Assembly (NCBI GenBank): GCA_004284765.1
Contig: NQJD01000027.1
Span: forward strand, 2,974-34,973
Length of the DNA: 32,000 nt
Source: Candidatus Electronema aureum
GTDB lineage: Bacteria > Desulfobacterota > Desulfobulbia > Desulfobulbales > Desulfobulbaceae
Reading direction: 5' to 3'
In this document: in pieces, positions 7,963 through 30,177 of the stretch
Layout of the letters: the number at the start of each line of letters is the position of its first letter
Position numbering within the stretch: the first letter of the stretch is position 1
Program-made: the position numbers and the translations under genes
Notes under the pieces: generated by a model
Databases searched by the model: none
Seen by the model: only the letters and a program-made list of their open reading frames with translations
What the model was told of the DNA's origin: nothing

Positions 7963-8427
7963 ATGAAAAAAAACGTTCAACACACCATTGCTGCACTACT
8001 GCTAACCTTCCTTTCTTTTTCCTCAGCGTTGGCGAAATTCGATATTCCTGATTACGTTTATCCTGCCAGCCAGCTCAAAGAAGCGCAGGAAAAGGCGAAA
8101 AGCAGTAGAAAGCCCATTGCCTTTGTCGGCACTGACAAAGAAACTACTTGTCCGATAGCGACAGCAGCCAGCCAAGAGATTTTTCAAGGTCTGAAAGATT
8201 CCTGCATTATTGTCTATGTTGAGCAGAGTGATATCGACAATCTCCCGGACGTTGCAGGAAAGGCTCTGGATTCAGAAGAAGCAGGCAAGTATATTCCCAA
8301 AACAGCGGTGGTTAGTGCGGACGCAAGCACGCTGATCCTCATTCTTCCTGATGCTCAACCGGAGCAGCGGGCGATGAAAATCAAGGAAGCTCAGGGAAAA
8401 ATCGCCCAGTATATGGCAGAAAAATAA
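7963..8427 (+). CDS. secreted thioredoxin-fold (Thioredoxin_7-like) protein with degenerate active site
   Basis: 154 aa with signal peptide MKKNVQHTIAALLLTFLSFSSALA. The layout EAQEKAKSSRKPIAFVGTDKETTCPIA...IIVYVEQSD mirrors thioredoxin-like proteins, but the WCxxC site reads TCPIA, with a single Cys. Confidence 0.4.
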   Translation: MKKNVQHTIAALLLTFLSFSSALAKFDIPDYVYPASQLKEAQEKAKSSRKPIAFVGTDKETTCPIATAASQEIFQGLKDSCIIVYVEQSDIDNLPDVAGKALDSEEAGKYIPKTAVVSADASTLILILPDAQPEQRAMKIKEAQGKIAQYMAEK

Positions 8428-8481
8428 TTAACCCTTCTGCCTTTCATCTCACTACAAACACGCATAAAGGAGAACCAGATT

Positions 8482-8811
8482 ATGGCAAGTGACAAAGTTA
8501 TCAATGTGACAGATAGTTCTTTTGAGAGTACCGTGATCAACGGCGGACTTCCCTGCCTCGTTGATTTTTGGGCACCGTGGTGCGGCCCCTGTAAGGCCAT
8601 CGGCCCGGTTATTGATCAGCTCGCTGATGAGTTTGACGGCAAAGTAAAGATCGCCAAGATGAATGTGGATGAAAACCCGGAAACCCCGGGTAAATTCAGC
8701 ATCAGGGCCATCCCGACTCTGATTTTGTTCAAGAACGGCGAAAAGTTAGACATGATCACCGGTGCAGTGGGCAAAGGCCAGCTGGTGGCTCTGCTCAACA
8801 AGGCAGTCTGA
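8482..8811 (+). CDS. trxA: thioredoxin
   Basis: 109 aa with the canonical FWAPWCGPCK active site. Confidence 0.95.
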   Translation: MASDKVINVTDSSFESTVINGGLPCLVDFWAPWCGPCKAIGPVIDQLADEFDGKVKIAKMNVDENPETPGKFSIRAIPTLILFKNGEKLDMITGAVGKGQLVALLNKAV

Positions 8812-8880
8812 TCGTTTCAGCGGCGCAGTCTCCGGGGCGTTCCGCGCTCCGGGGGCGAAATTTAATTGCGGAAAATTCTC

Positions 8881-9816
8881 ATGAACAAGCCAGATTATCA
8901 GCTGATCATTATCGGCGGTGGCCCTGCCGGACTGACTGCCGGGCTGTACGCAGCTCGAGGGCGGATCAAAACCCTGCTCATTGAAAAAGGCGCAACCGGT
9001 GGCCAAGTGCTGCTCACCGACTGGGTCGATAATTATCCCGCCTTTCCTGATGGCGTAGCCGGTTTTGAGCTGATAGACAAGATGACCGCCCAAGCTGATC
9101 GCTTCGGGCTGGAAAAAAAATTTGCCGCCGTTGAGTCGCTGGATTTGCAAGCCGAGCTGAAAAGCGTTCGCTTGGATTCTGGCGAACAACTGACTTGTGA
9201 GGCGATTATCCTTTGCACCGGAGCCAAACCGCGTAAAATCGGTGTACCGGGCGAAGAGGAGCTGCAAGGCAAAGGTGTGTCCTATTGCGCTACCTGCGAC
9301 GGTCCTTTTTATCGTGATCAGGAAATTGCGGTGGTGGGTGGCGGTAATACGGCCATTCAGGAAGCGATCCATTTGACTAAATTTGCGAAAAAAGTAACGG
9401 TCGTTCACCGCCGCGACACGCTACGAGCCACGGCCATTTTACAGGAAAAGGCTTTGGCGAACGAAAAAATCAAGTTTATTTGGAACGCTCAGGTGAGCGA
9501 AATCATTGGCACGGAGAGCGTCGAGGCAGTGAATATCCGCTATAACGACGGCTCGACCTCTGTGCTGCCGGTGACAGGAATTTTTGTCCTCATCGGAGTG
9601 ATGCCTAACAATGAAATCCTGCCGCTGGAGCAGCTAAAAACCGACGAAGGCGGCTTCTTGATCACGGACAGTGAAATGGGCTGTCTCGACCTGCCGGGCG
9701 TATTTGCCGCAGGCGACATCCGCAGCAAGCTCTTCCGCCAGATTATCAATGCTGCCGGTGAAGGGGCCAACGCCGAACTTTCGGCTGAACATTATCTCGG
9801 CACCCGACCGAGCTGA
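8881..9816 (+). CDS. trxB: thioredoxin-disulfide reductase
   Basis: The track ORF begins at the TTG at 8866; the ATG at 8881 gives MNKPDYQLIIIGGGPAG (FAD site). Redox CATCDG and the NADPH site GGGNTA are present. Confidence 0.9.
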   Translation: MNKPDYQLIIIGGGPAGLTAGLYAARGRIKTLLIEKGATGGQVLLTDWVDNYPAFPDGVAGFELIDKMTAQADRFGLEKKFAAVESLDLQAELKSVRLDSGEQLTCEAIILCTGAKPRKIGVPGEEELQGKGVSYCATCDGPFYRDQEIAVVGGGNTAIQEAIHLTKFAKKVTVVHRRDTLRATAILQEKALANEKIKFIWNAQVSEIIGTESVEAVNIRYNDGSTSVLPVTGIFVLIGVMPNNEILPLEQLKTDEGGFLITDSEMGCLDLPGVFAAGDIRSKLFRQIINAAGEGANAELSAEHYLGTRPS

Positions 9817-14077: not shown

Positions 14078-14416
14078 ATGGAGATGGATATAAAGAAAAC
14101 AATGATTGCAATTTTATGTTTATCAGTTATTTTTTTCTCAGTCGCCAATCTATTTGCCTTTGAAGATATCACTACAAAAATTAAAAAAGCTTATACTAAT
14201 GAAGAAGGTGCGCTTCTTATACAGGCTGAAGCGGCAAATGGTTCACCCGATGGCTGGCTGAAAGTTGGCAGCAACAATCTGGTCAGCAATCCTGCGGCCC
14301 GTATGATGTATGCCACCGCACTTATTGCATTGACCACAGGTAAAACATGTTGGGTACGAATTATTCCAACCGCTGAAGGGTACTGGGTTGCGGACAGAAT
14401 ATCGATCAACCAGTAA
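14078..14416 (+). CDS. small secreted protein P1 (unknown; possible OB-fold lectin / AB5 B-subunit-like)
   Basis: 112 aa in AT-rich DNA, with signal peptide ...MIAILCLSVIFFSVANLFA-FED (an alternative start is 14084). The mature part is about 85 aa and shares a pattern with the next gene. Confidence 0.6.
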   Translation: MEMDIKKTMIAILCLSVIFFSVANLFAFEDITTKIKKAYTNEEGALLIQAEAANGSPDGWLKVGSNNLVSNPAARMMYATALIALTTGKTCWVRIIPTAEGYWVADRISINQ

Positions 14417-14486
14417 TCGAAAATGTTGGGGGATTATTTCGCTCTCTTTAGCTTACTGAACTTCAAACAATGCGGAGGATAAATTC

Positions 14487-14837
14487 ATGAAATGGTATTG
14501 TCTTGCAGCTCTTATGGTGCTATGCCAAATATCTCAAGCAAAAGCTGAAGTTATTTTAGTGACAGGTGCGAAAATTATTTTCTATGCCCAAAGTCATTCT
14601 GACAGCGATGCCCATATGATTCAATCAAATATAGGGATTTACAAAGGAGGAGATCATCCATCGTGTATAAACAATCGTCTATATATAGATTTTACAGACA
14701 AGGAAATAATTGCAACCGCTATGGCGGCTTCTCTTGCTAACAAATCTGTTAGCTTTCTGTACGATGATGCCGCTGCAAGTAAACAAATGACAGGACACGC
14801 AATTAATAATTGTAGGGTGTTCAGTATATGGCAGTAG
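14487..14837 (+). CDS. small secreted protein P2 (divergent paralogue of P1)
   Basis: 116 aa with a strong SD (GGAGG) and signal peptide MKWYCLAALMVLCQISQAKA. EIIATAMAASLANKSVSFLY aligns with P1 MMYATALIALTTGKTCWVRI, and both proteins end in a short hydrophobic strand followed by Q. Confidence 0.6.
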   Translation: MKWYCLAALMVLCQISQAKAEVILVTGAKIIFYAQSHSDSDAHMIQSNIGIYKGGDHPSCINNRLYIDFTDKEIIATAMAASLANKSVSFLYDDAAASKQMTGHAINNCRVFSIWQ

Positions 14838-14915
14838 CCCTTTGATCAGCAAGAGCCGCTTGGCCGGGAAGATGCAGGGGCGTAATGAGCATAAAAATCA
14901 AACACGGTGTCAATC

Positions 14916-15173
14916 ATGCCGGTCATTTCCATGTTTTACGGAATCATCATCCGCATGTATCTGCTTGACAACAAGCATCACAATATTCCGCATGTTCATG
15001 CTGAATACGAGGCTTCCATCAGCATTGCCGACGGCGAGGTGCTTGCAGGGCAGCTTCCTCGAAAGCAGCTCAGGCTGGTGCAGGCGTGGATTGAGCTGCG
15101 CCGTGACGAGCTGACGGCGGACTGGGAGCTTGCCCTCAGTGATGAAAAGCCGTATAAAATTGCTCCGTTGTGA
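14916..15173 (+). CDS. DUF4160-domain protein
   Basis: The track ORF starts at the GTG at 14907; the ATG at 14916 gives MPVISMFYGIIIRMYLLDNKHHNIPHVHAEY..., the hallmark DUF4160 N-terminus. Confidence 0.8.
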   Translation: MPVISMFYGIIIRMYLLDNKHHNIPHVHAEYEASISIADGEVLAGQLPRKQLRLVQAWIELRRDELTADWELALSDEKPYKIAPL

Positions 15174-15179
15174 GATGCC

Positions 15180-15422
15180 ATGCACTGGGACGTGAAATTT
15201 GTTCAGCCTCTTGAAGAGTACCAAATTTATGTTGAGCTGGAAAACAGCCGGAAAGGAATCTTCGACATGAAGCCCTACCTGCATCGCGGTGTCTTTCAGG
15301 AACTCCGAGATGTGCATTATTTCAACCAAGTCGGCATCCTGTTCGGAGCCGTTACATGGCCAAACGAGCAGGACATCGCCCCGGAAACCCTGCTGGCGGA
15401 GATGGTTCAGGCGGATACATAG
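15180..15422 (+). CDS. DUF2442-domain protein
   Basis: 80 aa, 6 nt after the DUF4160 gene. YQIYVELENSRKGIFDMKPYL...VTWPNEQDIAPETL fits the DUF2442 pattern. Confidence 0.8.
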   Translation: MHWDVKFVQPLEEYQIYVELENSRKGIFDMKPYLHRGVFQELRDVHYFNQVGILFGAVTWPNEQDIAPETLLAEMVQADT

Positions 15423-15537: not shown

Positions 15538-15788
15538 TGAACAAAACCGCGACAGTACGCGCCCGCCTTGCCCCTGATTTGAAAGATCGGGTTCCGCCAG
15601 CTCGGTCTGACCACCACCCAAGCCATCACCATATTCTACAAACAGGTTGAACAACGAAACGGGTTGCCGTTTAATCTTGTCCTGCCAAACGCAACCACAC
15701 GCCAGACCTTTGACGACACAGATGCTGGGCGTGTGATCTGATTGTCTGCGAGAATGCCGACGATATGTTCAGCAAGCTGGGCATCTGA
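15538..15788 (+). pseudogene. decayed RelB/DinJ-family antitoxin gene (internal deletion plus frameshifts)
   Basis: Frame 1 reads MNKTATVRARLAPDLKDR and then runs into a stop. A second frame continues LGLTTTQAITIFYKQVEQRNGLPFNLVLPNATTRQTFDDTDAGR, and a third gives IVCENADDMFSKLGI*. Together these reconstruct a DinJ-like protein that lacks its middle. Confidence 0.7.
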
Positions 15789-15789
15789 T

Positions 15790-15936
15790 GCTGACCCCTG
15801 CGAATTCGCAGGGGTTGACCGCTACGACTTTTTAGAAGCCTGCCGCCAGCACCGCATTGATGTCGTTGACTATGACCCGGATGAACTGGAGACAGATTTC
15901 GCCGCGCTGATCAAAGGGAACGCGGCATCATGCTGA
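15790..15936 (+). pseudogene. 5'-truncated UPF0175-family antitoxin fragment (fused into chimeric ORF 15742-15936)
   Basis: The C-terminal half CEFAGVDRYDFLEACRQHRIDVVDYDPDELETDFAAL matches the UPF0175 HTH plus acidic-tail pattern. The N-terminal half is missing. Only a 12-codon stub (15930-15968) follows where a partner toxin would be expected. Confidence 0.55.
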
Positions 15937-16011: not shown

Positions 16012-16110
16012 GTAGGGTGGGCAAACGGTTTTATCGTTTGCCCACGCGGAAGCTGATATAAATTGGTGGCAAGCAAAAAGACGTTTGCCCATCCTACGGT
16101 ACTACGGTAC
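16012..16110. repeat. nested palindromic repeat cluster (three copies of a CGTTTGCCCA core) plus an 8-bp tandem duplication
   Basis: GTAGGGTGGGCAAACG (16012-16027), the inverted partner CGTTTGCCCAC (16035-16045; 11-bp stem, 7-nt loop), and a second inverted partner ACGTTTGCCCATCCTAC (16081-16097; one mismatch to the full 16-mer). CTACGGTA then occurs twice in tandem (16094-16109). Confidence 0.8.
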
Positions 16111-16150: not shown

Positions 16151-18097
16151 ATGAATCCTCTTGACGACCTTCCGCAACGCCATAATTCTCACGATACTGG
16201 AGAAGCGGCAGAAACTGCTTTCCGAAATGCTGTCAATAATCTGAATTATTTTGTTATCCAACGGGAAGACCGCAATGACTATGGAACAGATATTCAGATA
16301 GAAGCTCGCAAAGGCGACGCAATGACGAATATCCGTGTCCATGTTCAATTGAAGGGTACAGAGTCAACTACAAACAAAGATGATTCGGTCAGTATTTCAG
16401 TTGAACGCACGAATCTGAATTATCTTTTGGCACAACCAAATTCAGTTTACGTTTGTTATCATCTCCCTTCCAAGCGGTTGTTGGTTCGTTATGCAGAAGA
16501 TGTTTACCGCGAATATGAACATCGTGGCGGAGCTTGGATGCAACAGAGTAATTTAACAGTACGCTTCTTTCAACCATTTGACGAACATTTTCAGCAGCAG
16601 CTCAATGCACGGGTCATTGCTTCTGGAACAGCAGGAAGAGACAGGCGGCTTCTGTGGACAGGTACACCTCCTGATAAACTCTCGGCTTTAGTCCAGAGAT
16701 CGAATGAGGTCATTGAAGTGCCTGTTGACGAAGAACAGGCATTGAAGGTGCTTGAAGAGCTTTATGAGGTTGGCAAAGATAGCACAATCAGTAATTGTTT
16801 TGATCAGTTTGCTGCCGTGCTCGGTTCCGTCCCGCACGGAATGCTTTTTGCTTATTTGGCAGAAATCAACTTGGGGATTAATGCAATTCCATTCGACAGA
16901 GATAGGATTATCGAAGGAGTTAAGTTTCTTGATGAAATGATCGAGAAGCAAGAAGGACATCCTGGCTCAATCTTTTATTGCATAGGTAATGCAGGATTAG
17001 CTTTAGGTAATTATGAAATGGCTCAGGCTGCTTATTATAACGCTTTAAAATTGCTGCGTGTTACTCCTGAAACATATGAATTAGCAGCCAGATGCTGCAA
17101 GAATTGGGGGAGTGTCTTGAAAAAGATTTCGAGAATGCACGAGGCCCGTAATGCCTATGAAGGAGCATTAAAATTTGATCCTGATTTAGGGGAAGCGCAT
17201 TTGGCTCTTGGTCTCTGGCACCGTCAGCATGGAAATATATCTTTGGCATTAAAACATCTTGATAACGTAATTCAACAGAGCAATTCTGCTGTGCAGATGT
17301 CCACAGTGCATGGCTGGAGGATGACTCTGTTCTTTGAAAGCGGGGATACTGAAGGAGCATTCCGGGAAATAAACAATCTGATCGGCGAGGCTAAACAACA
17401 TGAATGGATTTGGCCATGCTGTGCAAGGCATGTCGCTCAATTTGGTGTAACATCTGCTGACTCTGCTCGAAAGGCTCTTATATTCTGGCGGCAGTATCTT
17501 CGTGAACACCCAAAGTATAGTCGTGCTGAACGGGAACGTTTGCTCTGTAATTGGTATTTACACTCACGGGGAGCACCTTGTGAAATTGACTTTCAAGGAT
17601 TCAAGACCGCAGTTGTCCAGTTGATAGAGAATGGCGATTCATCACCTGCATTTTTATGGGACAGAATAGGGCACTTTGCTCAAGATGACGGTGACTGGGA
17701 AGAAGCTGAACAGGCTTACCGGAAGGCATACCAAATAGAACCTGAACGATACGGTTATTGTTTGGGAACAGCATTAAATCTTCTTCGTCGCTACAGCGAA
17801 GCTCTTCCCATTCTGCTTCCTCAAGCCGAGCAGCATCTTCCTGACGCTATGAGTTGGTTTCAGGTGGCACAGGCACGCGGAGGCGTTGGCGACATCGAAG
17901 GTTGTATTTCTGCGTATGAGAAGGCTATAGAGCTTGATGACAGTTATGACCTTGCTTGGTTCAATCTCGGCGGCGTTTATTGGAACAACCGGCAGACAGA
18001 AAAAGCTGGTGAGATATGGAGAGAAGCGGTGAGACGTTTTCCAAATCATGAAATAGCCAAGAAGCTTCTCCAAGATTTGCTCAGTAGATCGGCCTGA
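16151..18097 (+). CDS. DUF4365 (PD-(D/E)xK / Mrr-like nuclease fold) N-terminal domain fused to a TPR array; no NTPase domain
   Basis: 648 aa. The N-terminal GEAAETAFRNAV...DYGTDIQIE...IRVHVQLKGTES fits the DUF4365 pattern (D43/D47 ... Q66-x-K68). At least six canonical 34-residue TPR units are visible, e.g. AFLWDRIGHFAQDDGDWEEAEQAYRKAYQIEPER and DLAWFNLGGVYWNNRQTEKAGEIWREAVRRFPNH. No GxxxxGK[ST] occurs anywhere in the protein. Confidence 0.7.
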   Translation: MNPLDDLPQRHNSHDTGEAAETAFRNAVNNLNYFVIQREDRNDYGTDIQIEARKGDAMTNIRVHVQLKGTESTTNKDDSVSISVERTNLNYLLAQPNSVYVCYHLPSKRLLVRYAEDVYREYEHRGGAWMQQSNLTVRFFQPFDEHFQQQLNARVIASGTAGRDRRLLWTGTPPDKLSALVQRSNEVIEVPVDEEQALKVLEELYEVGKDSTISNCFDQFAAVLGSVPHGMLFAYLAEINLGINAIPFDRDRIIEGVKFLDEMIEKQEGHPGSIFYCIGNAGLALGNYEMAQAAYYNALKLLRVTPETYELAARCCKNWGSVLKKISRMHEARNAYEGALKFDPDLGEAHLALGLWHRQHGNISLALKHLDNVIQQSNSAVQMSTVHGWRMTLFFESGDTEGAFREINNLIGEAKQHEWIWPCCARHVAQFGVTSADSARKALIFWRQYLREHPKYSRAERERLLCNWYLHSRGAPCEIDFQGFKTAVVQLIENGDSSPAFLWDRIGHFAQDDGDWEEAEQAYRKAYQIEPERYGYCLGTALNLLRRYSEALPILLPQAEQHLPDAMSWFQVAQARGGVGDIEGCISAYEKAIELDDSYDLAWFNLGGVYWNNRQTEKAGEIWREAVRRFPNHEIAKKLLQDLLSRSA

Positions 18098-18156: not shown

Positions 18157-18315
18157 ATGTCCAGAACGATTACATTGGAACTTCCAGACGATATTTATCT
18201 TGCCTTGCAAAGAATGGCTGAAAAACGAGGAAAGAATATCAGCCAGATTGTTCTTGAATTGATAAAAAACATGCTGGCAGAAGATCAATTGCTGCAAGCA
18301 ATCCCCACGAACTAA
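18157..18315 (+). CDS. ribbon-helix-helix (CopG/Arc-like) small protein, orphan antitoxin-like
   Basis: Below the ORF-track size cut-off. AGGAG (18146-18150) lies 6 nt before the ATG. Translation: MSRTITLELPDDIYLALQRMAEKRGKNISQIVLELIKNMLAEDQLLQAIPTN (52 aa), a beta-strand/helix/helix RHH pattern. Confidence 0.65.
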   Translation: MSRTITLELPDDIYLALQRMAEKRGKNISQIVLELIKNMLAEDQLLQAIPTN

Positions 18316-19425: not shown

Positions 19426-21258
19426 ATGGCTGACCTTCTTTCCTGCCGTGAACTCGGCAAAGCGTTCGGGGCACAGAGCCTCTTTTCCTCAGTCAATCTC
19501 TCCATCAGCGAGGGCGACCGCATCGGTCTGATCGGGCCGAACGGCTCCGGCAAATCCACTCTGCTGAAAATCATCAGCGGTATGATTGAGCCGGACGGTG
19601 GCGACATCTTCCGGCAGCGGCATGTCCGCAGCAGCTTCCTTGCGCAAGAGGATGCGTTTGCTGAAGACAAGAGCTGTCTGGATAACCTCTGCGCCGCAAT
19701 TGACGACCAGCATCTGGAGCCTGCCGAGCGAGAAAGCCGGGCGCAGGCTCTTCTCAGCCGGGCAGAATTCACTGATCCTGACTGCCCAGCAGGTTTGCTC
19801 TCCGGCGGCTGGCGCAAGCGGCTGGCCATCTGCCGCGCTTTGATCGTCCGGCCTGACCTGCTCCTGATGGACGAGCCGACCAACCATCTTGACTTGGAAG
19901 GCATACTCTGGCTGGAAAAGATGCTCAACGCCTCGCTGCCGGAAAGCCCTGCCGCGTTCCTGATGATCAGCCACGACCGCCGCTTTCTGGAGAACACGGT
20001 CAGGCGGGTGATTGAGCTGTCTGCCGCCTACCCGAACGGCACCTTGCAGGTGAACGGCAACTATTCCGCCTTTGTCGAGCAGCGGGAAACCTTCCTTGAG
20101 CAGCAGCAGGAGCAGGAGGAGCGACTGGCCAACAAGGTGCGGCGGGAGAATGAATGGCTCAGTCGCGGCCCGAAAGCCAGAGGCACCAAGGCCAAAGCCC
20201 GCAAGGACGCGGCCTATCAGCTTCAGGATGATCTGGTTGAGGTGAAGAACCGCAACCGGGTCGGTAAGGTGGATATTGCCTTTGATGCCACTGAGCGGAA
20301 GACGAAAAAGCTGCTGACTGCGGTTGGCATCAGCAAGAGCTTTGACGGCAGGCAGCTTTTCAGCAATCTTGATCTGACGCTCTCGCCCGGCACAAGGCTG
20401 GGCCTGCTGGGGCGGAATGGCTGCGGCAAATCCACCTTAATGCAGATACTCGCCGCCGCAGACCGCAATGACGGCCTCAAGCCGGACAGCGGCACGGTCA
20501 AGGTGGCGGACAAGCTGCGCATTGTCAATTTTGATCAGCGCAGGCAGCAGCTTGATCAAAAGCAGACCTTACGCCGTGCTCTATCACCGGACGGCGATTC
20601 GGTGCTGTATCAAGACCGGTCAATCCATGTGGTCTCTTGGGCGAAACGCTTCCTCTTCCGCCCAGATCAGCTGGAAACCCCGGTGGCGCGACTATCTGGC
20701 GGCGAACAGGCCCGCATTCTCATTGCTGCGCTGATGCGCCAGCCTGCGGACGTGCTGCTGCTTGATGAACCGACCAATGATCTCGACATTCCTTCCTTGG
20801 ATGTGCTGGAGGAAAGCCTGAGCGAGTTCCCCGGCGCATTAGTGTTAGTCACCCACGACCGCTTCATGCTCGACCGGCTCTGCGATCAGGTGCTCGGCTT
20901 TGACGGCAAAGGCAACGCTTCCTTCTTTGCTGAGTATGCGCAATGGCTGCGCACTCTTGCTGACGACGCAGGCCCAGTGCCAAGCAGCAAGAAAACGCCG
21001 CCTGCTGCGCCTGATGTCAAGAAAGCAACGAAAAAACTTTCCTACAAAGACCAGCGCGAGTATGATCTGATGGAAGAAAGCATCCTTGCCGCTGAAACCC
21101 GGCAGGAGGAGCTGGAGGCGCGGATGCACGAGCCGGAGCTTGTTGCTGATCCGGCCAAGCTCGCTGAATACTGGGAAGAGCAGGCAGCGGCGGCGCAGGA
21201 GGTCGCCCGCCTGTACGCCCGCTGGGAGGAGCTGGAGCGGCTCAAGAATGGCGAATAG
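19426..21258 (+). CDS. uup: ABC-F family ATPase, Uup-like (C-terminal coiled-coil domain)
   Basis: 610 aa. Walker A motifs GLIGPNGSGKST and GLLGRNGCGKST, signatures LSGGWRKRL and LSGGEQARI, and a C-terminal LSYKDQREY...ELEARM... coiled coil as in Uup. The ATG directly abuts the pheA stop (TAAATG). Confidence 0.8.
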   Translation: MADLLSCRELGKAFGAQSLFSSVNLSISEGDRIGLIGPNGSGKSTLLKIISGMIEPDGGDIFRQRHVRSSFLAQEDAFAEDKSCLDNLCAAIDDQHLEPAERESRAQALLSRAEFTDPDCPAGLLSGGWRKRLAICRALIVRPDLLLMDEPTNHLDLEGILWLEKMLNASLPESPAAFLMISHDRRFLENTVRRVIELSAAYPNGTLQVNGNYSAFVEQRETFLEQQQEQEERLANKVRRENEWLSRGPKARGTKAKARKDAAYQLQDDLVEVKNRNRVGKVDIAFDATERKTKKLLTAVGISKSFDGRQLFSNLDLTLSPGTRLGLLGRNGCGKSTLMQILAAADRNDGLKPDSGTVKVADKLRIVNFDQRRQQLDQKQTLRRALSPDGDSVLYQDRSIHVVSWAKRFLFRPDQLETPVARLSGGEQARILIAALMRQPADVLLLDEPTNDLDIPSLDVLEESLSEFPGALVLVTHDRFMLDRLCDQVLGFDGKGNASFFAEYAQWLRTLADDAGPVPSSKKTPPAAPDVKKATKKLSYKDQREYDLMEESILAAETRQEELEARMHEPELVADPAKLAEYWEEQAAAAQEVARLYARWEELERLKNGE

Positions 21259-22785: not shown

Positions 22786-22870
22786 AAAAAGCAGCTCTTG
22801 CAGTCAGTGCAGCGGAGTGCTATAAGAAACTTAGTGCATTTATTCTTCAATCGATTGTTTGGTTGCATCT

Positions 22871-23818
22871 ATGTTTCTTGATAAAAAAATTGCGGTGGTT
22901 ATTCCTGCCCACGATGAAGAAAGGTTAATCAGCAAGGTCATCGGCACTATGCCGGACTTTGTCGATTATATCGTGGTGGTGGATGACAAAAGCAGCGATA
23001 GCACCGCCGTTGTGGTACGAAAATTGACCGAGTCAAATCGGAAAATAGTCCTGATTCCGCATGAGGAGAACCGGGGTGTAGGTGCAGCTATCGCCACTGG
23101 CTATAAATGGGCCAGAGACCATCAGGTAGACGTGACGGCGGTCATGGCCGCAGATTTTCAGATGGATCCCGCAGACTTGCCTCGCATCGTCAAGCCGGTC
23201 TGCACAGGGGAATGCGACTACACCAAAGGCAATCGGCTCTTCCGGGGTGAGTCATGGGGGATGATTCCTAAACACCGCTACATCGGCAATTCTTTTCTCT
23301 CGCTTTTCACTAAAATAGCCTCAGGATATTGGCACATTGCTGATTCACAGAGCGGCTACACCGCGATTTCGTTGCAAGCCTTGCGAGCGATTGATTTGGA
23401 TGCGATTTACCCGCGCTACGGAATGCCGAATGATCTGTTGATCAGCCTGAATATTGCAAATTTCAGAGTGCGTGATATCTCTATTCGCCCGGTCTATAAT
23501 GTGGGTGAGGTTTCTGGTATCCGCCTGAAAAAGGTGATTTTTACCATCCCTTGTATATTAGTAAAAGGCTTCAGCCGAAGAATGGTAGAAAAATATATCA
23601 TCCGTGATTTTCATCCGCTGATTTTCTTCTACACACTGGGGTTGATCTTTTTTTTCTTCACGGTGATTCTGACCATCCGAGCGTTCATTTTTCTTGGTAT
23701 TGACGGAAAATTGCCACCCATCAACACGCTAGCGGCGATGTTTTCATTTATGAGTTCCAGCATTTTTATCCTGTTCGGCATGTGGTTTGACATGGAGTAC
23801 AATAAGGAGTTGAAGTAA
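22871..23818 (+). CDS. family-2 glycosyltransferase, GtrB/ArnC-like (polyprenyl-phosphate sugar transferase architecture)
   Basis: The track ORF starts at the TTG at 22859; the ATG at 22871 gives MFLDKKIAVVIPAHDEE. VVVDDKSSD is present, and two C-terminal TM helices are typical of GtrB/ArnC. Confidence 0.7.
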   Translation: MFLDKKIAVVIPAHDEERLISKVIGTMPDFVDYIVVVDDKSSDSTAVVVRKLTESNRKIVLIPHEENRGVGAAIATGYKWARDHQVDVTAVMAADFQMDPADLPRIVKPVCTGECDYTKGNRLFRGESWGMIPKHRYIGNSFLSLFTKIASGYWHIADSQSGYTAISLQALRAIDLDAIYPRYGMPNDLLISLNIANFRVRDISIRPVYNVGEVSGIRLKKVIFTIPCILVKGFSRRMVEKYIIRDFHPLIFFYTLGLIFFFFTVILTIRAFIFLGIDGKLPPINTLAAMFSFMSSSIFILFGMWFDMEYNKELK

Positions 23819-23820
23819 AT

Positions 23821-24609
23821 ATGAATCAATTCCAGATTGGATACATAGAATCAATACGACGGTATGAGTTAGAGAAAGTTTTGTCTATCATGTGTGAAGA
23901 GAAAGGAGTAAACAGTAATATTAAAATATTAGAGATAGGAGCCGGAGCTGGTTGGCAAGCAAAAAAAATGTCTGAATGTGGTTATTCTGTTGAGGCCATA
24001 GATATCGCGAAAAGCAATTATTTAGAGCAACGTGTTTGGACTGTAAAAAATTATGACGGCAAAAACATACCGTTTGCGGATTATTCATTTGATGTAGTTT
24101 TCAGTTCGAGTGTATTGGAGCATATTTATAATTCACAGGAATTTCAACAGGAAATAAAAAGGGTATTAAAAAAAGACGGTATTGCCATCCATGTAGTGCC
24201 TGGAACAGCTTGGAGATTTTGGACAAGCATGACCCATTATCCTTTTCTGATAAAAGAAATTGGAACGTTAACTTGCAGAATGATATTTTCATCGCATACA
24301 AACCATCCTAACAAAGATACTGTAGAATCAAAACAAATAACAAAAAAGGAGCTGTTTAAGAGGACAGTAATTCCATGCCGTCACGGAGAAAGAGGGAATA
24401 GCTTCAGTGAGCTGTATTATTTCAGCAAAAAATATTGGAGCAGCTTGTTTGAAAATACAGAATGGAAAATAAAAAAAATCTATCAAAATGAGCTTTTTTA
24501 TACTGGCCATATGTTTTTAGGGGTACTATTGTCTATTTCTGCAAGAAAACATTTAAGTTTGTTAATAGGAAGTGTTTGTCATATCTTTCTTCTTGTAAAA
24601 AATGAATAA
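23821..24609 (+). CDS. class I SAM-dependent methyltransferase (MT-1)
   Basis: 262 aa, AT-rich. Motif I ILEIGAGAGW and the post-I acidic residue (VEAIDI), followed by VVFSSSVLEHI. Confidence 0.75.
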   Translation: MNQFQIGYIESIRRYELEKVLSIMCEEKGVNSNIKILEIGAGAGWQAKKMSECGYSVEAIDIAKSNYLEQRVWTVKNYDGKNIPFADYSFDVVFSSSVLEHIYNSQEFQQEIKRVLKKDGIAIHVVPGTAWRFWTSMTHYPFLIKEIGTLTCRMIFSSHTNHPNKDTVESKQITKKELFKRTVIPCRHGERGNSFSELYYFSKKYWSSLFENTEWKIKKIYQNELFYTGHMFLGVLLSISARKHLSLLIGSVCHIFLLVKNE

Positions 24610-24634
24610 GATTCATAGTCTACCGGAGTTTGAT

Positions 24635-24871
24635 ATGGCACAATATATCGAGACTGATGTAGATATTGCGGAATATTTGAGTCAAGTGCTTGAGGAGGGC
24701 GATGTTGGTGAACTTTGCTGCCGCGCTGGGGTATATCGCCAAAGTCTGTGGCATTAAGCGGGAAACACTTTATAAAACATGCGTCCAAATGTTCTGCCGC
24801 GTCTTGATACGATCCAACGTGTATGCAAGGTTCTTGGAGTTAAACTTACGGTACAAGTCACGAGTGCTTAA
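24635..24871 (+). pseudogene. frameshifted HigA-type addiction-module antidote gene (orphan)
   Basis: Frame A reads MAQYIETDVDIAEYLSQVLEEGDVGEL and then hits a stop. The middle continues in another frame as FAAALGYIAKVCGIKRETLYKT. The end returns to frame A as RPNVLPRLDTIQRVCKVLGVKLTVQVTSA*. This implies two compensating indels. No toxin gene lies upstream. Confidence 0.65.
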
Positions 24872-24889
24872 TTGTCGTTTTGAAAATAA

Positions 24890-24901
24890 TTTTTTTTTTT
24901 T
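24890..24901. repeat. T12 homopolymer tract upstream of the flippase gene
   Basis: Twelve consecutive T residues, 24 nt before the ATG at 24926. Confidence 0.9.
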
Positions 24902-24925
24902 GCTGAGGCTGTTTGTTTTTGACGG

Positions 24926-26203
24926 ATGAATTTTTCTATCAAAACCAAAAGGGTAAAGCTAATCATCTTTTGCTGGAAGAGCGTATTTCACCAAGAACCT
25001 TCTCTGGGAGTGATACGACAGGCTGAAAGATTTTTTCTCTTTGGGACAGGCATGATGGTAGCAAGATTTCTGTCCGTTGCTTCCCAAGTTATCATGGGCA
25101 GGAAGTTTGGGCCGGAAATCTACGGGCAGATTACAATAATTCTGCTCATATCAAGCTATTTTGCCATGCCAATAGTCAATGGCTGGGGTTTAGTTTTCAC
25201 TAAGATTGCCGTAAAAGAAATCGATGTCAGCAAAAAAAATCAAGCCCTAAAGTCCCTGCTGCTTGTCGTCTCTGTTTGCTGTATCCTAACCACGCTCGTC
25301 CTTTTTGTTCTGCAAAGCCCTCTTGCTGACTTACTGGATATCGACAGAAGAATGATGCGTTTGTCACTTATCATGACTGTTTGCTATGCTTGGTGGATAT
25401 TGACAAAACAGATAGCGCAAGGATTTCAGAATTGGCGGGCATATATTCTGATTGAAAATATTTGGGCATCTATTGTTCTTTCAGGTCTTCTGGTGCTGGC
25501 ATTCTGGGGAAAGTTTAATCTTTTTACGGTGAGTTGGGTCTTCTTTGCAGGGTATGTTGTCGCTGGCCTTGTTCTTGTCAAAGGCCTCTGGCAGTCTCTT
25601 CTTGTTAAAATTGATAAAAATTATATAAAGGATATCCTCTCACATGGCTGGTTTCTGTTGCTGAATAGCATAGTTGGCACAGCGGCTTTCAGCGTTGACA
25701 GAATAATGATCAACAAAGCTCTTGGTAGCCAAGAAGTCGGAATATATCAAGCGCATTTTATTGCAACTTATGGCATGACTTCAGCTATATTTACTGTATT
25801 TATCACATATATATTTCCAATTATTTGTCGAAACAACACAAACACTGTTTCTCTTTTAGAGAAGATAGCTTTTTTGCAGTATCCTGCCACAATACTTTTC
25901 ACTGCGGCGACGGGTTATTTTTCATTTAGTTTGTTTAGTTATCAATTCAACAGCATTCTTTTTATTTTTTTGGTTATGTTTTGTGCGATACAAAATCATT
26001 TACAGATAAATCTATGGTATATAGCAAGCAAGGGGATAGATGGCGGAAAAAAAACACTCATAAGTCAAGCAGTATTTTTTTTATCAAGCACGGTTATCTT
26101 AATTGTAATTTTACCATATTGTAAGACTTATTCTGGCGGAATAGCTTTAGCCGTTTCTTCATTAATAACATTAATTTTCTCAGGAGAGAAAAAAGGTTTG
26201 TAG
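24926..26203 (+). CDS. polysaccharide flippase (Wzx/MOP-superfamily-like polytopic membrane protein)
   Basis: 425 aa with about 12 hydrophobic segments. The N-terminal region FLFGTGMMVARFLSVASQVIMGRKFGPEIYGQ is typical of polysaccharide biosynthesis (Wzx-type) proteins. The start codon is uncertain. Confidence 0.65.
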   Translation: MNFSIKTKRVKLIIFCWKSVFHQEPSLGVIRQAERFFLFGTGMMVARFLSVASQVIMGRKFGPEIYGQITIILLISSYFAMPIVNGWGLVFTKIAVKEIDVSKKNQALKSLLLVVSVCCILTTLVLFVLQSPLADLLDIDRRMMRLSLIMTVCYAWWILTKQIAQGFQNWRAYILIENIWASIVLSGLLVLAFWGKFNLFTVSWVFFAGYVVAGLVLVKGLWQSLLVKIDKNYIKDILSHGWFLLLNSIVGTAAFSVDRIMINKALGSQEVGIYQAHFIATYGMTSAIFTVFITYIFPIICRNNTNTVSLLEKIAFLQYPATILFTAATGYFSFSLFSYQFNSILFIFLVMFCAIQNHLQINLWYIASKGIDGGKKTLISQAVFFLSSTVILIVILPYCKTYSGGIALAVSSLITLIFSGEKKGL

Positions 26204-26214
26204 GTAACTATACA

Positions 26215-27081
26215 ATGAACGGATCGATATCAACATGTTGTATTTGCAATAAAAATGGAATTTATGATTATCGTGCAACTTTGCAATTGCTATCGAATCC
26301 ATCAAAATACAATTTTAAAGTTTTTCGTTGCAAGGAATGTGATTTTCGTTGGCTACATCCTCTCCCTATAATAGAAAAAATATATACTAAAGATTATTTT
26401 AATTCAGAAGATAATAATTATTCAGATATATCGAGTGAAATGTCTAAATGTTTTACTGAAGATGCTATAAAATTTAAAGAATTATCCCTTGGAGGACAAA
26501 TACTTGATATTGGTTGCGCCACAGGAGAGTTTTTAGAAGCAATCCAGTCTGTTGGGTTGAATGGCGTTGGAGTGGATGTAGCAAATTATGCTGTTGATGT
26601 AGCAACAAGAAAAAAATTATCTGTTATACAAGGAGATATATTTTATAGCATATTTGATTCAAAACGGTTTGACGGGATACATATGAGTCATGTTTTAGAA
26701 CATATTCCACATCCAAATAGTTTTCTTTGCAGAACCAATGAGTTGTTACAAAAAAATGGTATTGTATATATTGAGGTGCCGTTACAGTTTGATAGCTGGC
26801 TTGAAAAGATAAGTCGTATTCAAGGAAAAATGCAATCTTTTGAATTATACAAATTTCATCATTGTTCTTTTTTTACTCCAAAATCAATAAGATTAATTCT
26901 TGAAAAAAATAATTTTCAAATTATCTCTTTAACTACATTTAGATCATGCAGGCGTTCACAGAGAAAATTGTCTGCGCGATATTTTTTATTAACATTAATT
27001 TTATGGGTTTCAGACAAAATTTATAAAAGAGGTGATGTTATTTCCGTATGGGCAAAAACATCGCTGTCGTCAGAAAAATAA
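26215..27081 (+). CDS. class I SAM-dependent methyltransferase with N-terminal Cys4 zinc ribbon (MT-2)
   Basis: 288 aa. CCICNK...CKECDF, motif I ILDIGCATGEF, and GIHMSHVLEHIPHP. Confidence 0.75.
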   Translation: MNGSISTCCICNKNGIYDYRATLQLLSNPSKYNFKVFRCKECDFRWLHPLPIIEKIYTKDYFNSEDNNYSDISSEMSKCFTEDAIKFKELSLGGQILDIGCATGEFLEAIQSVGLNGVGVDVANYAVDVATRKKLSVIQGDIFYSIFDSKRFDGIHMSHVLEHIPHPNSFLCRTNELLQKNGIVYIEVPLQFDSWLEKISRIQGKMQSFELYKFHHCSFFTPKSIRLILEKNNFQIISLTTFRSCRRSQRKLSARYFLLTLILWVSDKIYKRGDVISVWAKTSLSSEK

Positions 27082-27101
27082 ATAGAGGCTGAAAAAATAT
27101 C

Positions 27102-27923
27102 ATGTTGAAAGAGCGATTTTCCTTTGGTAAAAACTGGAAAAATTTTCTCGAAACCCTTAATGAAGACCGTATCAAAGAGGCGGAACATTCTCTGCAATCA
27201 ATGCTGCATCTCGACACCCTGAGGGGAAAATCTTTTCTTGATATCGGATCAGGAAGCGGACTTTTTTCTCTAGCGGCAGCAAGGTTAGGGGCAGATAAAA
27301 TTCATTCATTCGATTATGACGATCAGAGTGTTGCCTGCACAAGGGAACTAAAACAACGATTTTTTTCAGAATTTACAGCTTGGTCAATTGAACAAGGTTC
27401 GACCCTTGATCAAAAATACCTTCAAGATATTGGCATGTATGATGTAGTGTACTCATGGGGAGTTCTGCATCATACCGGTGAAATGTGGCAGGCATTAGAG
27501 AATGTCTCCCATTGTGTTGCTGAGAATGGATATCTCTTTATAGCAATCTACAACGATCAAGGCGTAATAAGTGATATTTGGACTCAGGTAAAGAAAATAT
27601 ACAACAAACTGCCAGGGTTTTTACGTCTATTCTATGTTTTCTCTATCTGGACTCCTTTTGAAATATTGCCATCAATAAAACAAGTTGCTACAGGACATTT
27701 GCCTTGGAATCACTGGGTCACATACAAAAAAAATCGTGGAATGTCACGTTGGCATAATATTGTAGATTGGATTGGAGGTTATCCTTTTGAGGTGGCTACG
27801 CCTGAAAAGATTTTTCATTTCTATCATGAGAGGCTATTTGTCTTGGTAAAAATGAAGACTAGACAGGGTTTGGGATGCAACGAGTTTGTATTCAGGAAAA
27901 TAAACAAGGATATTAAGGCATAG
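27102..27923 (+). CDS. class I SAM-dependent methyltransferase (MT-3)
   Basis: 273 aa. Motif I FLDIGSGSGLFSLAAARLGA, then SFDYD and VVYSWGVLHHTG. Confidence 0.75.
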   Translation: MLKERFSFGKNWKNFLETLNEDRIKEAEHSLQSMLHLDTLRGKSFLDIGSGSGLFSLAAARLGADKIHSFDYDDQSVACTRELKQRFFSEFTAWSIEQGSTLDQKYLQDIGMYDVVYSWGVLHHTGEMWQALENVSHCVAENGYLFIAIYNDQGVISDIWTQVKKIYNKLPGFLRLFYVFSIWTPFEILPSIKQVATGHLPWNHWVTYKKNRGMSRWHNIVDWIGGYPFEVATPEKIFHFYHERLFVLVKMKTRQGLGCNEFVFRKINKDIKA

Positions 27924-27928
27924 AAGTA

Positions 27929-29056
27929 ATGAATATCCTCGTAATAGCTAATATAGCTCCCTTTGAAACAGGTGGGGCTGAAGTACAAGTCAGAAGACTT
28001 GCTGAAGCATGGCTGAAACAAGGCCAACGTGTTACTATCGTTGGTAATCGTATTCCATCATGCAAAATAACAGTTAATAATTCCAAACATACCTTTAACT
28101 GTGTGCACATTTCGACAGTCTTGACCAATCGGTTTACGCGTGCTGTTAGTTACGCTGTGTCATTGTCTTGGTTCGTCATAACGCATCAAAAAGAGTTCGA
28201 TATAATTTATTGTCGTTTTTTACAAGAAGCAGCTCTTGTCATTGGTTTACTTAAAACACTCCGCATTGCCTCTCTTCCGTTTGTTGCTTGCCCAGCGTGT
28301 TCTGGTATAAAAGGAGATGTTGCTTTTATTGAGAAAATGCCGATTTCTAACCTGTTAAGGTGTATCCTTAATAAAACATGTAATACTGTCAACAGCATAT
28401 CCCCTCAAATTGAGAATGAACTCATAAAATTCGGCATATATAAAATTAAAATAACGCATATACCAAATGGTATTTCTCTACCGTCGAAATATGCACAAAA
28501 AAGGATTAGTTCCGGTAATAAATCGTGTATTTTTGTGGGTCGTCTTACAGAGCAAAAGGGATTACCTTATCTGATGGAAGCTATCCATAAGTTAGCACAA
28601 CAAAATCATTATCCTGATTTGACAATTATTGGCGAAGGCCCAGACAGGAAAAAACTTGAAGAATTAATTTGCAGGCTAAACATTCAGAGACAGGTAAATT
28701 TTTGCGGAAAGATTGCTCATGAAGAAATTAATGACCATCTCTGTAATCATGATATTTTTGTGCTGCCTTCTTTGTACGAAGGACATCCTAACGCCTTGCT
28801 TGAGGCAATGGCAATAGGACTCCCATCTCTTGTTACCAAGTGCGGAGGTTCCGAATATTTTGTCGATAATTCAGTTGGGCGGGTAGCAAAGGCGGGTGAT
28901 GCAGACTCTCTTGCTCAGGCGTTGCAAGAGTTATTAGAACTCAGCGATGAAGAACTACAGGCTATGGGCCAAGCAGCACGAGAGAGGGCAAAAAATAATT
29001 TTGATATTGATGTGATCGCTGATAAGTACATTCAGCTCTTCAAGGAACACATCTGA
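27929..29056 (+). CDS. family-4 (GT-B) glycosyltransferase
   Basis: 375 aa. The EX7E region reads LPSLYEGHPNALLEAMAIGLPSLVT. The gene is AT-rich. Confidence 0.8.
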   Translation: MNILVIANIAPFETGGAEVQVRRLAEAWLKQGQRVTIVGNRIPSCKITVNNSKHTFNCVHISTVLTNRFTRAVSYAVSLSWFVITHQKEFDIIYCRFLQEAALVIGLLKTLRIASLPFVACPACSGIKGDVAFIEKMPISNLLRCILNKTCNTVNSISPQIENELIKFGIYKIKITHIPNGISLPSKYAQKRISSGNKSCIFVGRLTEQKGLPYLMEAIHKLAQQNHYPDLTIIGEGPDRKKLEELICRLNIQRQVNFCGKIAHEEINDHLCNHDIFVLPSLYEGHPNALLEAMAIGLPSLVTKCGGSEYFVDNSVGRVAKAGDADSLAQALQELLELSDEELQAMGQAARERAKNNFDIDVIADKYIQLFKEHI

Positions 29057-30140: not shown

Positions 30141-30177
30141 TGTTGAATGCCGCCGCTATATCGGTTATACACAGCCC

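Follow-up and report, generated by a model that had tools for sequence, protein, structure and literature searches.

A candidate NTPase-free anti-phage protein family that joins a DREN-type nuclease head to a helical TPR sensor

The DUF4365-TPR gene of a cable bacterium

The subject of this study is a single gene on a stretch of 32,000 nucleotides (nt) of Candidatus Electronema aureum DNA (contig NQJD01000027.1 of assembly GCA_004284765.1), which we call the window and to which all coordinates refer unless another locus is named. This gene is an intact open reading frame (ORF) of 648 codons on the forward strand (16151-18097), and an identical protein of 648 amino acids (aa) is annotated in a metagenome-assembled genome (MAG) of this cable bacterium. 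The start codon is confirmed by the N-terminal alignment of 32 homologues (MxxLDDLP). A previous interpretation made from the letters of the window alone, hereafter the sequence-only reading, had described the protein as an endonuclease head on an array of tetratricopeptide repeats (TPRs) and as a possible single-gene sensor-effector in defense; the motifs that it quoted, including D47 and Q66-x-K68, are numbered correctly on direct reading of the translation. The gene can be divided into the following parts:

16151-18097, forward strand: complete DUF4365(DREN)-TPR gene including the stop codon, a full-length member of a family of nearly constant length, ~645-660 aa (from the ORF)
16187-16582, forward strand: DREN/DUF4365 PD-(D/E)xK nuclease head, residues 13-144, with alpha1, a beta-sheet core and flanking helices (from PF14280, PADLOC and the model of the head)
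16277-16291, forward strand: DxGxD motif, D43-Y-G45-T-D47, predicted metal-binding/catalytic acidic residues (from invariance and alignment to EAT16)
16346-16354, forward strand: QxK motif, Q66-L-K68, predicted catalytic Gln/Lys of the PD-(D/E)xK site (from invariance and alignment to EAT16)
16583-16663, forward strand: stalk helix, residues 145-171, connecting head and sensor (from the AlphaFold model)
16661-18091, forward strand: shared sensor module, residues 171-647, composed of a helical linker (172-249) and ~11 TPR-like hairpins (250-647) (from Pfam, the model and hhalign)

The N-terminal head resembles the DREN nuclease of SPARDA

The Pfam profile of DUF4365 (PF14280) matches residues 19-118 with an E-value of 3.3e-16 and 60.0 bits against a cut-off of 24.3, and the DUF4365/Mrr-like endonuclease postulated by the sequence-only reading thus stood up to its profile check with all catalytic residues intact. 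PADLOC models match the head only, namely the Argonaute-associated Aga_REase models (2.3e-8), which cover residues 11-124, and the candidate model PDC-M02A (2.7e-7). For fold comparison, the head was modeled alone (predicted local-distance difference test, pLDDT, of 87.6) because a full-length Foldseek search had returned generic TPR proteins only. All of the top 15 PDB matches of this model were DREN-APAZ chains of SPARDA systems (XauSPARDA 9qcc, EaeSPARDA 9qbp, NbaSPARDA 9jt2/9jsz, as well as 9vx6), with a probability of 1.00, template modeling (TM) scores of 0.58-0.64, a root-mean-square deviation of ~2.9 A, ~22% identity and a best E-value of 1.3e-7. Weaker matches behind them were the PD-(D/E)xK nucleases D212, Hjc, MspJI, and I-Ssp6803I. 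This comparison by AlphaFold and Foldseek, which had been proposed as a check, gives the head a restriction-endonuclease-like fold that can be superposed on solved DREN domains. DREN was reached by fold comparison only; searches of the PDB with the head as a single sequence and as a profile gave no match.

Across 32 homologues of 43-78% identity, the invariant residues of the head are D40, D43, G45, D47, E51, N60, R62, Q66, K68, G69, and T70, and 7 additional members carry the DxGxD...QxK pattern at identical positions. A hidden Markov model of the head profile (hmmsearch) places D43/G45/D47/Q66/K68 on D42/G44/D46/Q66/K68 of EAT16, a DUF4365 protein of Photorhabdus; an hhalign run of the same profile against the single EAT16 sequence produced a spurious alignment and was discarded in favor of hmmsearch. 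Single mutants of EAT16 at D42, D46, Q66, and K68 have been reported, three of which lose toxicity to E. coli (PMC11297309). In NbaSPARDA, nuclease activity is lost in D41A and Q60A and impaired in K62A, and D41A also abolishes defense (PMC12205087), and the Q62A/K64A variant of TmuRE is inactive (PMC10810196). From the identical spacing of 19 residues between D and Q (D47-Q66), we infer that D47 corresponds to the catalytic D41 of NbaSPARDA, and motif order and spacing would likewise align Q66/K68 with NbaSPARDA Q60/K62 and TmuRE Q62/K64. Isolated DREN domains are monomeric and inactive, and they cleave DNA non-specifically only once they have been forced into a tetramer (PMC12205087; bioRxiv 10.1101/2025.04.08.647717). 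Judged by its sequence and its model, the head belongs to the DREN-type PD-(D/E)xK nucleases and has kept its catalytic site intact, and its nuclease activity itself is predicted.

The remainder of the protein is a helical solenoid, the putative sensor, without any NTPase

An AlphaFold2 model of the full-length protein (32 homologues in the alignment) reached a mean pLDDT of 90.8 and a predicted TM score of 0.73. In this model, an alpha/beta head extends to about residue 140 and is followed by a helix of 27 residues (145-171), in which R163 and R166 are invariant across the 32-homologue alignment, and by nothing other than helices thereafter. Between residues 250 and 647, the model contains 22 helices with pLDDT >90 that form ~11 TPR-like hairpins, and TPR families of Pfam cover residues ~276-642 (TPR_2 at 4.6e-21, TPR_1 at 1e-19). 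Other searches had little to add, since full-length Foldseek matches were TPR solenoids only (e.g., OGT, SPINDLY, and CTPR), NCBIfam gave sub-threshold matches to generic TPR proteins only, and the single weak PADLOC match in the sensor region was to the generic "TPR" model (E 1.6e-4). The sequence-only reading had counted at least six TPR units; the array is real, with a count closer to 11 hairpins, and a helical linker (residues 172-249) and the stalk helix come in addition to it.

The same reading had pointed to the absence of a Walker A motif anywhere in the protein, and this absence holds for the family: A motif search found neither Walker A nor Walker B in the query or 31 homologues, no NTPase family was matched in Pfam, PADLOC, or NCBIfam scans, and no beta-strand lies between residues 145 and 648 in the model. 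A hidden P-loop NTPase core can be excluded because there is no beta-sheet after residue 145. The cryptic P-loop that might have been expected in residues 150-270 was ruled out by the motif search together with the model, which is helical throughout 145-648.

A sister family carries the same sensor on a DUF4062 head

An exhaustive profile search revealed around 20 representative proteins of 600-640 aa that match the profile of the family only from ~170-190 to ~645, with 230-350 bits. DUF4062 (PF13271) was found in all 10 of these sister proteins that were scanned with Pfam, and in nine of them it is N-terminal with E-values from 1e-16 to 6e-21; the 605-aa protein P0188 has an N-terminally cut DUF4062 (4.6e-12), and one sister member also matches TIR_2. 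A sister fragment of 544 aa gave no DUF4062 match in Pfam. Profile-profile comparison of the two families by hhalign (probability 100%, E 7e-105, 472 columns) aligns residues 171-647 of the query with residues 152-623 of the sister and excludes both heads, so that the junction at which heads are swapped is the C-terminal end of the stalk helix, where this alignment begins at residue 171. A tblastn search with a sister protein in turn retrieved exactly the DUF4365-TPR genes on plasmids through their sensor region (E 2e-54).

The sister heads share an invariant Glu in a THxEY motif (E83 in P0177), which is consistent with the catalytic "E-Y" region described for DUF4062 (10.64898/2026.06.25.731849). 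The family (a subset of P0176-P0252) comprises ~24 clusters at 90% identity that come from metagenomes only, and neither its census nor the plasmid search yielded an Enterobacter or any other named organism. Three of its loci (L093-L095) lie beside genes for MmeI-type restriction-modification (RM), HsdS, PLD nuclease, and transposases. In three preprints of 2026, DUF4062, renamed NIR, has been reported as a TIR-like NADase that serves as anti-phage effector, namely in Swarozyc, which becomes active when it assembles on the phage portal (10.64898/2026.05.01.722283), and in Evangelion (10.64898/2026.06.25.731849). NIR effectors are further reported for Avs2, Vesta, and Vulcan, the last of which is a direct fusion of NIR to helical repeats that lacks an NTPase and is activated by a small protein of phage lambda (bioRxiv 10.64898/2026.09.04.749371). 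The DUF4062(NIR)-TPR sister is itself an undescribed candidate NADase defense protein.

The sharing of one sensor by DREN and NADase heads argues that residues 171-647 act as an activation switch that is agnostic to the effector that it controls. The earlier proposal that the repeats gate the effector finds strong support in this occurrence of the same ~470-aa module of linker and TPRs on a DUF4062/NIR NADase head. It is characteristic of modular immune proteins that different suicide effectors are mounted on the same conserved sensor.

The family is rare, widely scattered, and carried by conjugative plasmids

Our homologue search yielded 201 matches at E <= 0.001 among 8,000 scored candidates (clusters at 90% identity from 5.8 billion sequences). 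The best 120 of these 201 matches are members of the family, nearly all of them full-length, and the exhaustive profile search gave about 35 family representatives at 50% identity among the best matches. We found the gene in at least 163 of 185,579 species-representative genomes (~0.09%), and this rare and patchy distribution extends over about ten phyla. Hosts are found among Desulfobacterota, Gemmatimonadota, Planctomycetota, Latescibacterota, Acidobacteriota, Nitrospirota, and Myxococcota as well as among Alpha-, Beta-, and Gammaproteobacteria, with proteobacterial hosts including Bradyrhizobium, Agrobacterium, Achromobacter, Burkholderia, Photorhabdus, Yersinia, Serratia, Acinetobacter, Alteromonas, and Salinivibrio. 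The Photorhabdus family protein (L025) had no match in an exact-sequence cluster look-up. Twelve plasmid records carry the gene, 8 of them conjugative, and six Klebsiella plasmids and one Enterobacter plasmid are among the 12. Orthologues include WP_306589217.1 from a Klebsiella IncF plasmid and proteins of Yersinia thracica, Photorhabdus namnaonensis, and Acinetobacter sp. ANC 4805. The phage genome collection gave no family match, and viral contigs of IMG/VR contained 2 family loci only. Altogether, the distribution resembles that of a gene spread by horizontal transfer.

Homologues lie among defense and mobile genes without a conserved partner

Flanking ORFs within 6 kb were clustered at 87 loci, and no family of neighboring ORFs recurred at more than 9 of them. 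The gene therefore travels alone, with no partner that is conserved across the family. Evidence from the neighborhoods is given below as qualitative observations or as raw counts that are not corrected for background.

What surrounds the gene in annotated contexts is consistently of a defense or mobile kind. In a Marinobacter integrase island, it lies beside genes for an MmeI RM system, GmrSD_C, VspR, a ResIII helicase, and HipA, while in Microbulbifer it is placed between two integrases and adjoins a NERD-helicase of 1,671 aa. At other loci, it adjoins an ORC/CDC6-like STAND protein, a Type I RM system, and PIN/MazE, is surrounded by AIPR, resolvases, and PIN/RHH genes, or lies near a YhcG nuclease and transposases. 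On an IncF conjugative plasmid of Klebsiella, it adjoins genes for DUF3800, AAA+HNH, and AIPR. Two loci (L006:2831-16199 and L012:4685-16272) show a Type I RM operon with cargo in which hsdM-hsdS are followed by ptuA/ptuB of Septu, the DUF4365-TPR gene, and hsdR. The HsdR protein of this operon carries a C-terminal Peptidase_S24 (LexA-like) domain, an unusual fusion. In a relative with 78% identity, the family gene is followed by N6_Mtase/Eco57I and HsdS-like genes, and a small upstream ORF reads, by inspection, like an N-terminal fragment of HsdR.

A census of the 143 nearest-neighbor ORFs with Pfam was led by Phage_integrase (9), ResIII/DEAD (6), and SWI2_SNF2 (4); HTH_3, N6_Mtase, DUF4238, Eco57I, rve, and ORC-CDC6-like also ranked high, and SMODS, SLOG, and YhcG were present. 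PADLOC matches among the same ORFs were PbeA-like (4), PtuB (3), Type IV REase (3), DrmMI, Type IIG RM, Avs2, GajB, and PDC-S28. The sequence-only reading had named housekeeping surroundings of the homologues as a result that would speak against a defense protein; in the Pfam and PADLOC data, their contexts are defense or mobile regions rather than housekeeping ones.

A subset of loci has a second gene. A protein of ~210 aa, here called protein X, is encoded 15-36 nt upstream of the family gene at 11 of the 87 loci (~13%) by tblastn, compared to at most 9 of 87 by ORF clustering (L045, L046, L048, L049, L053, L056, L060, L063, L064, L071, and L082; e.g., L046:9354-9986). Its sequence is 89-100% identical between hosts of different genera and classes (several genera of Alphaproteobacteria and a single gammaproteobacterial MAG), pointing to a recent horizontal spread of a two-gene cassette formed by protein X and the family gene. 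No relatives of protein X were found in Pfam, PADLOC, or the PDB, and the window lacks it. Immediately upstream of protein X, three of these loci (L046, L048, and L064, each at 8411-9334) encode a CapP-like M78 peptidase (PADLOC capP, E 3.5e-73), a type of defense-system regulator that hints at regulated expression in this subclade. The earlier claim of a single-gene system therefore holds insofar as no partner is shared family-wide at the 87 loci, yet it has to be qualified for the ~13% with a conserved upstream gene.

The gene lies in a small low-GC islet of the window

GC content falls to 0.39-0.48 across ~14.0-18.0 kb of the window, compared to 0.53-0.60 in the flanks, and toxin-antitoxin-type genes or fragments are found in this region, which bears out the description of a compositionally mosaic island with toxin-antitoxin debris (DUF4160/DUF2442, a UPF0175 fragment, and RHH_1). 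No tRNA and no flanking direct repeats were found at the boundaries of the islet. Its other features are:

14078-14837: two small ORFs (112 and 116 aa) with hydrophobic, signal-peptide-like N-termini and no family match, in the part of the islet with the lowest GC (~39%)
14907-15422: gene pair DUF4160 + DUF2442, putatively toxin-antitoxin-like
15742-15936: ORF of 64 aa, probably a gene remnant, whose match to the antitoxin-type family UPF0175 is confined to the C-terminal half of that family (E 4.3e-6, just under the curated cut-off)
16012-16097: nested palindromes, with 11-nt perfect arms (16017-27/16035-45) inside 21-nt arms (16012-32/16077-97)
18157-18315, same strand as the family gene: orphan RHH_1 miniprotein gene of 52 aa (E 5.6e-5) with its own AGGAG Shine-Dalgarno sequence and no toxin partner

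The core of the palindromes (GTGGGCAAACG / CGTTTGCCCAC) is present three times. They had been placed 40 nt upstream of the gene; the palindromes are real, with a distance of 54-139 nt before the ATG, and could be a local operator, a scar left by an insertion, or a terminator that belongs to the upstream fragment. The RHH gene begins 59 nt downstream of the family gene and directly abuts pheA, and it was correctly described as following without a terminator, as no terminator-like site lies between the stop codon of the family gene and the RHH gene. Neither this gene nor the palindromes nor the intergenic DNA are found at any of ~90 other family loci, including that of the 78%-identical relative. 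Both the RHH gene on the downstream side and the palindromes on the upstream side are thus local features that do not belong to the system, and we rejected the idea of RHH as a partner or antitoxin acting on the palindromes as operator because this arrangement is kept at no other family locus. In a Latescibacterota genome, a homologous DUF4160/DUF2442 pair (46-60% identity) lies downstream of the family gene at a distance of ~6 kb (L077:18033-18533), which may be a coincidental co-occurrence in variable islets.

Some features elsewhere in the window deserve mention. A polysaccharide biosynthesis cluster of low GC (0.30-0.40) at 22859-31338, with genes for GT2, three SAM methyltransferases, a flippase, GT4, and UDP-GlcNAc 2-epimerase, is a second horizontally acquired region of the window, and its GT4 protein also matches "GT4-conflict" (PF20706, E 3e-9). 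Two paralogues of the ABC-F family of ATPases are encoded within 18 kb of each other (1725-3701 on the reverse and 19426-21258 on the forward strand), and a PIN-domain gene is located at 1020-1439.

Proposed function and its alternatives

We consider it probable that the gene encodes an autonomous anti-phage (or anti-mobile-element) protein that unites sensor and effector in one polypeptide. In uninfected cells, the nuclease heads would be inactive, as are isolated DREN domains in SPARDA. Upon infection, a phage protein or assembly would bind the sensor formed by linker and TPRs, and this binding would drive or rearrange oligomerization so that the DREN heads meet as an active tetramer. The tetramer would then cleave DNA non-specifically with Mg2+ or Mn2+, and the destruction of phage and host DNA alike would stop the infection at the cost of the cell by abortive infection or growth arrest. 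This particular mechanism of oligomerization is a tentative proposal that might well hold, though we would not rely on it to the same degree as on the general function.

Several points weigh against this interpretation. Nuclease activity, toxicity, and phage defense are predictions for every member of the family, and SPARDA needs an Argonaute filament for the tetramerization of DREN where only a TPR solenoid is available here. The sensor is nearly as conserved as the catalytic head (column identity of 0.61 vs. 0.66), so that its diversification is lower than might be expected of a surface in an arms race; such a conserved sensor might recognize a conserved structural assembly of phages or guard a host factor rather than detect a fast-evolving phage protein. 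The counts of defense genes among neighbors are raw and not set against the genomic background, and the additional upstream gene at 11 of the 87 loci means that some family members may need a partner. Finally, the islet in the window is poor, with 4.4 kb between a multiheme cytochrome gene and pheA that hold toxin-antitoxin-type fragments only, and the gene itself shows no Shine-Dalgarno-like sequence in the 20 nt before its ATG, as the sequence-only reading had noted, and no sigma70-like promoter was found upstream of it.

What else could such a protein do? A lone restriction-like (Type IV-like) endonuclease, constitutively able to attack foreign or modified DNA directly and with the TPRs as scaffold or for localization only, would fit with a head from the PD-(D/E)xK clan to which Mrr and MspJI belong, with MspJI, Hjc, and I-Ssp6803I among the weaker fold matches, and with the repeated location of the gene within or beside Type I, IIG, and IV restriction loci. 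However, everything past residue 145 is TPR or otherwise helical and includes no domain for recognizing DNA or reading its modification, and the closest structural relatives of the head are DREN domains, i.e., collateral nucleases without sequence specificity that are inactive as monomers. Moreover, the sister family shares its sensor with a NADase head, and since restriction of DNA is beyond a NADase, an effector-agnostic switch is the more parsimonious reading of the shared module. We therefore regard a restriction-like enzyme as unlikely. That the protein instead serves the host in DNA repair or recombination, or as a regulator that binds via its TPRs, with no role in conflicts with phages, is highly improbable: Strong conservation of the sensor across phyla and the housekeeping genes that flank the locus in the window would be expected of such a factor, but not its rarity (~0.09% of species genomes, spread over about ten phyla), its carriage by conjugative plasmids, its locally deviant GC, the integrases, transposases, RM, abortive infection, and toxin-antitoxin genes next to it, or near-identical two-gene cassettes in different bacterial classes.

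Two kinds of toxin have even less to recommend them. If the protein acted as toxin in an addiction or toxin-antitoxin module and thereby stabilized the mobile islet, the RHH_1 gene 59 nt downstream on the same strand without an intervening terminator would be its antitoxin/repressor and the nested palindromes upstream the operator, in line with the toxin-antitoxin-type genes of the islet. Yet RHH gene, palindromes, and intergenic DNA are all absent from the ~90 other loci including the 78%-identical relative, no other neighbor is conserved family-wide, the RHH gene has its own Shine-Dalgarno sequence and abuts pheA, and a simple toxin needs no conserved sensor of 470 aa, which leaves this explanation with hardly any credence. 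The same is true of a toxin that is secreted or injected into other bacteria or eukaryotes, e.g., as cargo of an extracellular contractile injection system (eCIS), with TPRs for chaperone binding or delivery. Its precedent is EAT16, a predicted eCIS toxin whose toxicity in E. coli depends on the same DxGxD...QxK residues (PMC11297309), and Photorhabdus, Yersinia, and Serratia do have members of the family; but EAT16 differs in architecture (339 aa, DUF4365+DUF1817, no TPR), no genes for secretion systems or eCIS adjoin family members in annotated contexts, and the Pfam scan revealed no signal or delivery domain in a protein whose neighbors are defense and mobile genes.

Beyond the function of the single protein, DUF4365-TPR and DUF4062-TPR may together represent a new class of NTPase-free pattern-recognition receptors, in which a portable switch of ~470 aa would assemble either DREN or NIR heads without nucleotide hydrolysis or an Argonaute filament. 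This generalization is possible though somewhat doubtful; if true, it would be the first Argonaute-independent route to DREN activation, and it poses the question of how DREN is activated without filament or NTPase. If our interpretation is confirmed, the DREN collateral nuclease that has been studied mainly in SPARDA could be driven by a protein-binding TPR sensor, and a natural pair of nuclease and NADase swapped on one sensor would be well suited for dissecting how sensing is coupled to oligomerization without an NTPase. The presence of the gene on conjugative plasmids of clinical Klebsiella and Enterobacter as well as in Yersinia, Photorhabdus, Serratia, and Acinetobacter would give it relevance for phage therapy and make it readily testable in E. 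coli. Like SPARDA, a collateral DNase that a trigger activates through a protein sensor could also serve in diagnostics.

Comparison with known defense systems

The combination of DUF4365 and TPR (searched as DREN+TPR or nuclease-TPR as well) was not found described in the literature that we searched, and PADLOC 2023 has no model for this architecture, so that the earlier statement that it matches no named defense system is upheld within these sources. Effector, type of sensor, and NTPase-free design are each known; what is new is their combination, together with the undescribed sister family.

The effector is most similar to that of SPARDA, with which the protein shares the nuclease family PF14280, the best structural match, and the same D...QxK motif with its 19-residue spacing from D to Q, and presumably also the need for induced oligomerization and a collateral DNA degradation that results in abortive infection. 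However, the query has a TPR array in place of a C-terminal APAZ domain, and no short Argonaute (MID-PIWI) gene is found in the window or in the annotated contexts of homologues. Lacking both APAZ and an Argonaute partner, the protein is not a member of SPARDA. The sensing principle would differ accordingly, since SPARDA senses a duplex of guide RNA and target DNA while the TPR solenoid presumably binds a protein, and no filament-forming scaffold is known for the query. Among other proteins with the same nuclease head, EAT16 has a different C-terminal domain (DUF1817) and is interpreted as an injected toxin (PMC11297309); its similar motif (D42/D46/Q66/K68) had made it a candidate member of the family, which we rejected on account of its length and domain composition. 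Divona, a cassette of DUF4365 and crr6 from Vibrio integrons that is listed as an anti-phage cassette, has crr6 where our protein has linker and TPRs.

In its order of modules, the protein is like Avs/AVAST and other STAND NLR-like antiphage ATPases, which also combine an N-terminal effector (often Mrr/REase-type) with a C-terminal TPR-type repeat sensor in one polypeptide and are likewise single genes in the context of defense islands; DUF4062/NIR is also a head of Avs2 (bioRxiv 10.64898/2026.09.04.749371). It differs from them by lacking the central STAND NTPase as oligomerization module, and PADLOC detects no sequence relationship of its sensor to Avs sensors. Without an NTPase, it is not a member of Avs/STAND.

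NTPase-free designs have been described before. DSR2 has a SIR2 NADase head and a C-terminal HEAT-like alpha-solenoid that binds a phage structural protein, and it is oligomeric, lacks an NTPase, and causes abortive infection. By this description, our protein resembles DSR2 as a suicide effector on a helical-repeat sensor that is free of an NTPase, and it differs in the effector (SIR2) and in the repeats (HEAT-like). Vulcan, Swarozyc, and Evangelion similarly unite an NTPase-free effector head and a sensing region in a single protein, but their head is the NIR/DUF4062 NADase whereas that of the query is a nuclease (DUF4365). Vulcan (WP_050009967.1), whose repeats are of the HEAT type, is likened to our protein by its design. 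The AUX part of Swarozyc is a winged-helix-type domain and not TPR (10.64898/2026.05.01.722283). An effector-plus-repeat design without NTPase is thus not unprecedented, given DSR2 as well as Vulcan (bioRxiv 10.64898/2026.09.04.749371). By analogy, the DUF4365-TPR protein may be likened to an Avs protein without its STAND module or to a Vulcan or DSR2 in which a nuclease has taken the place of the NADase.

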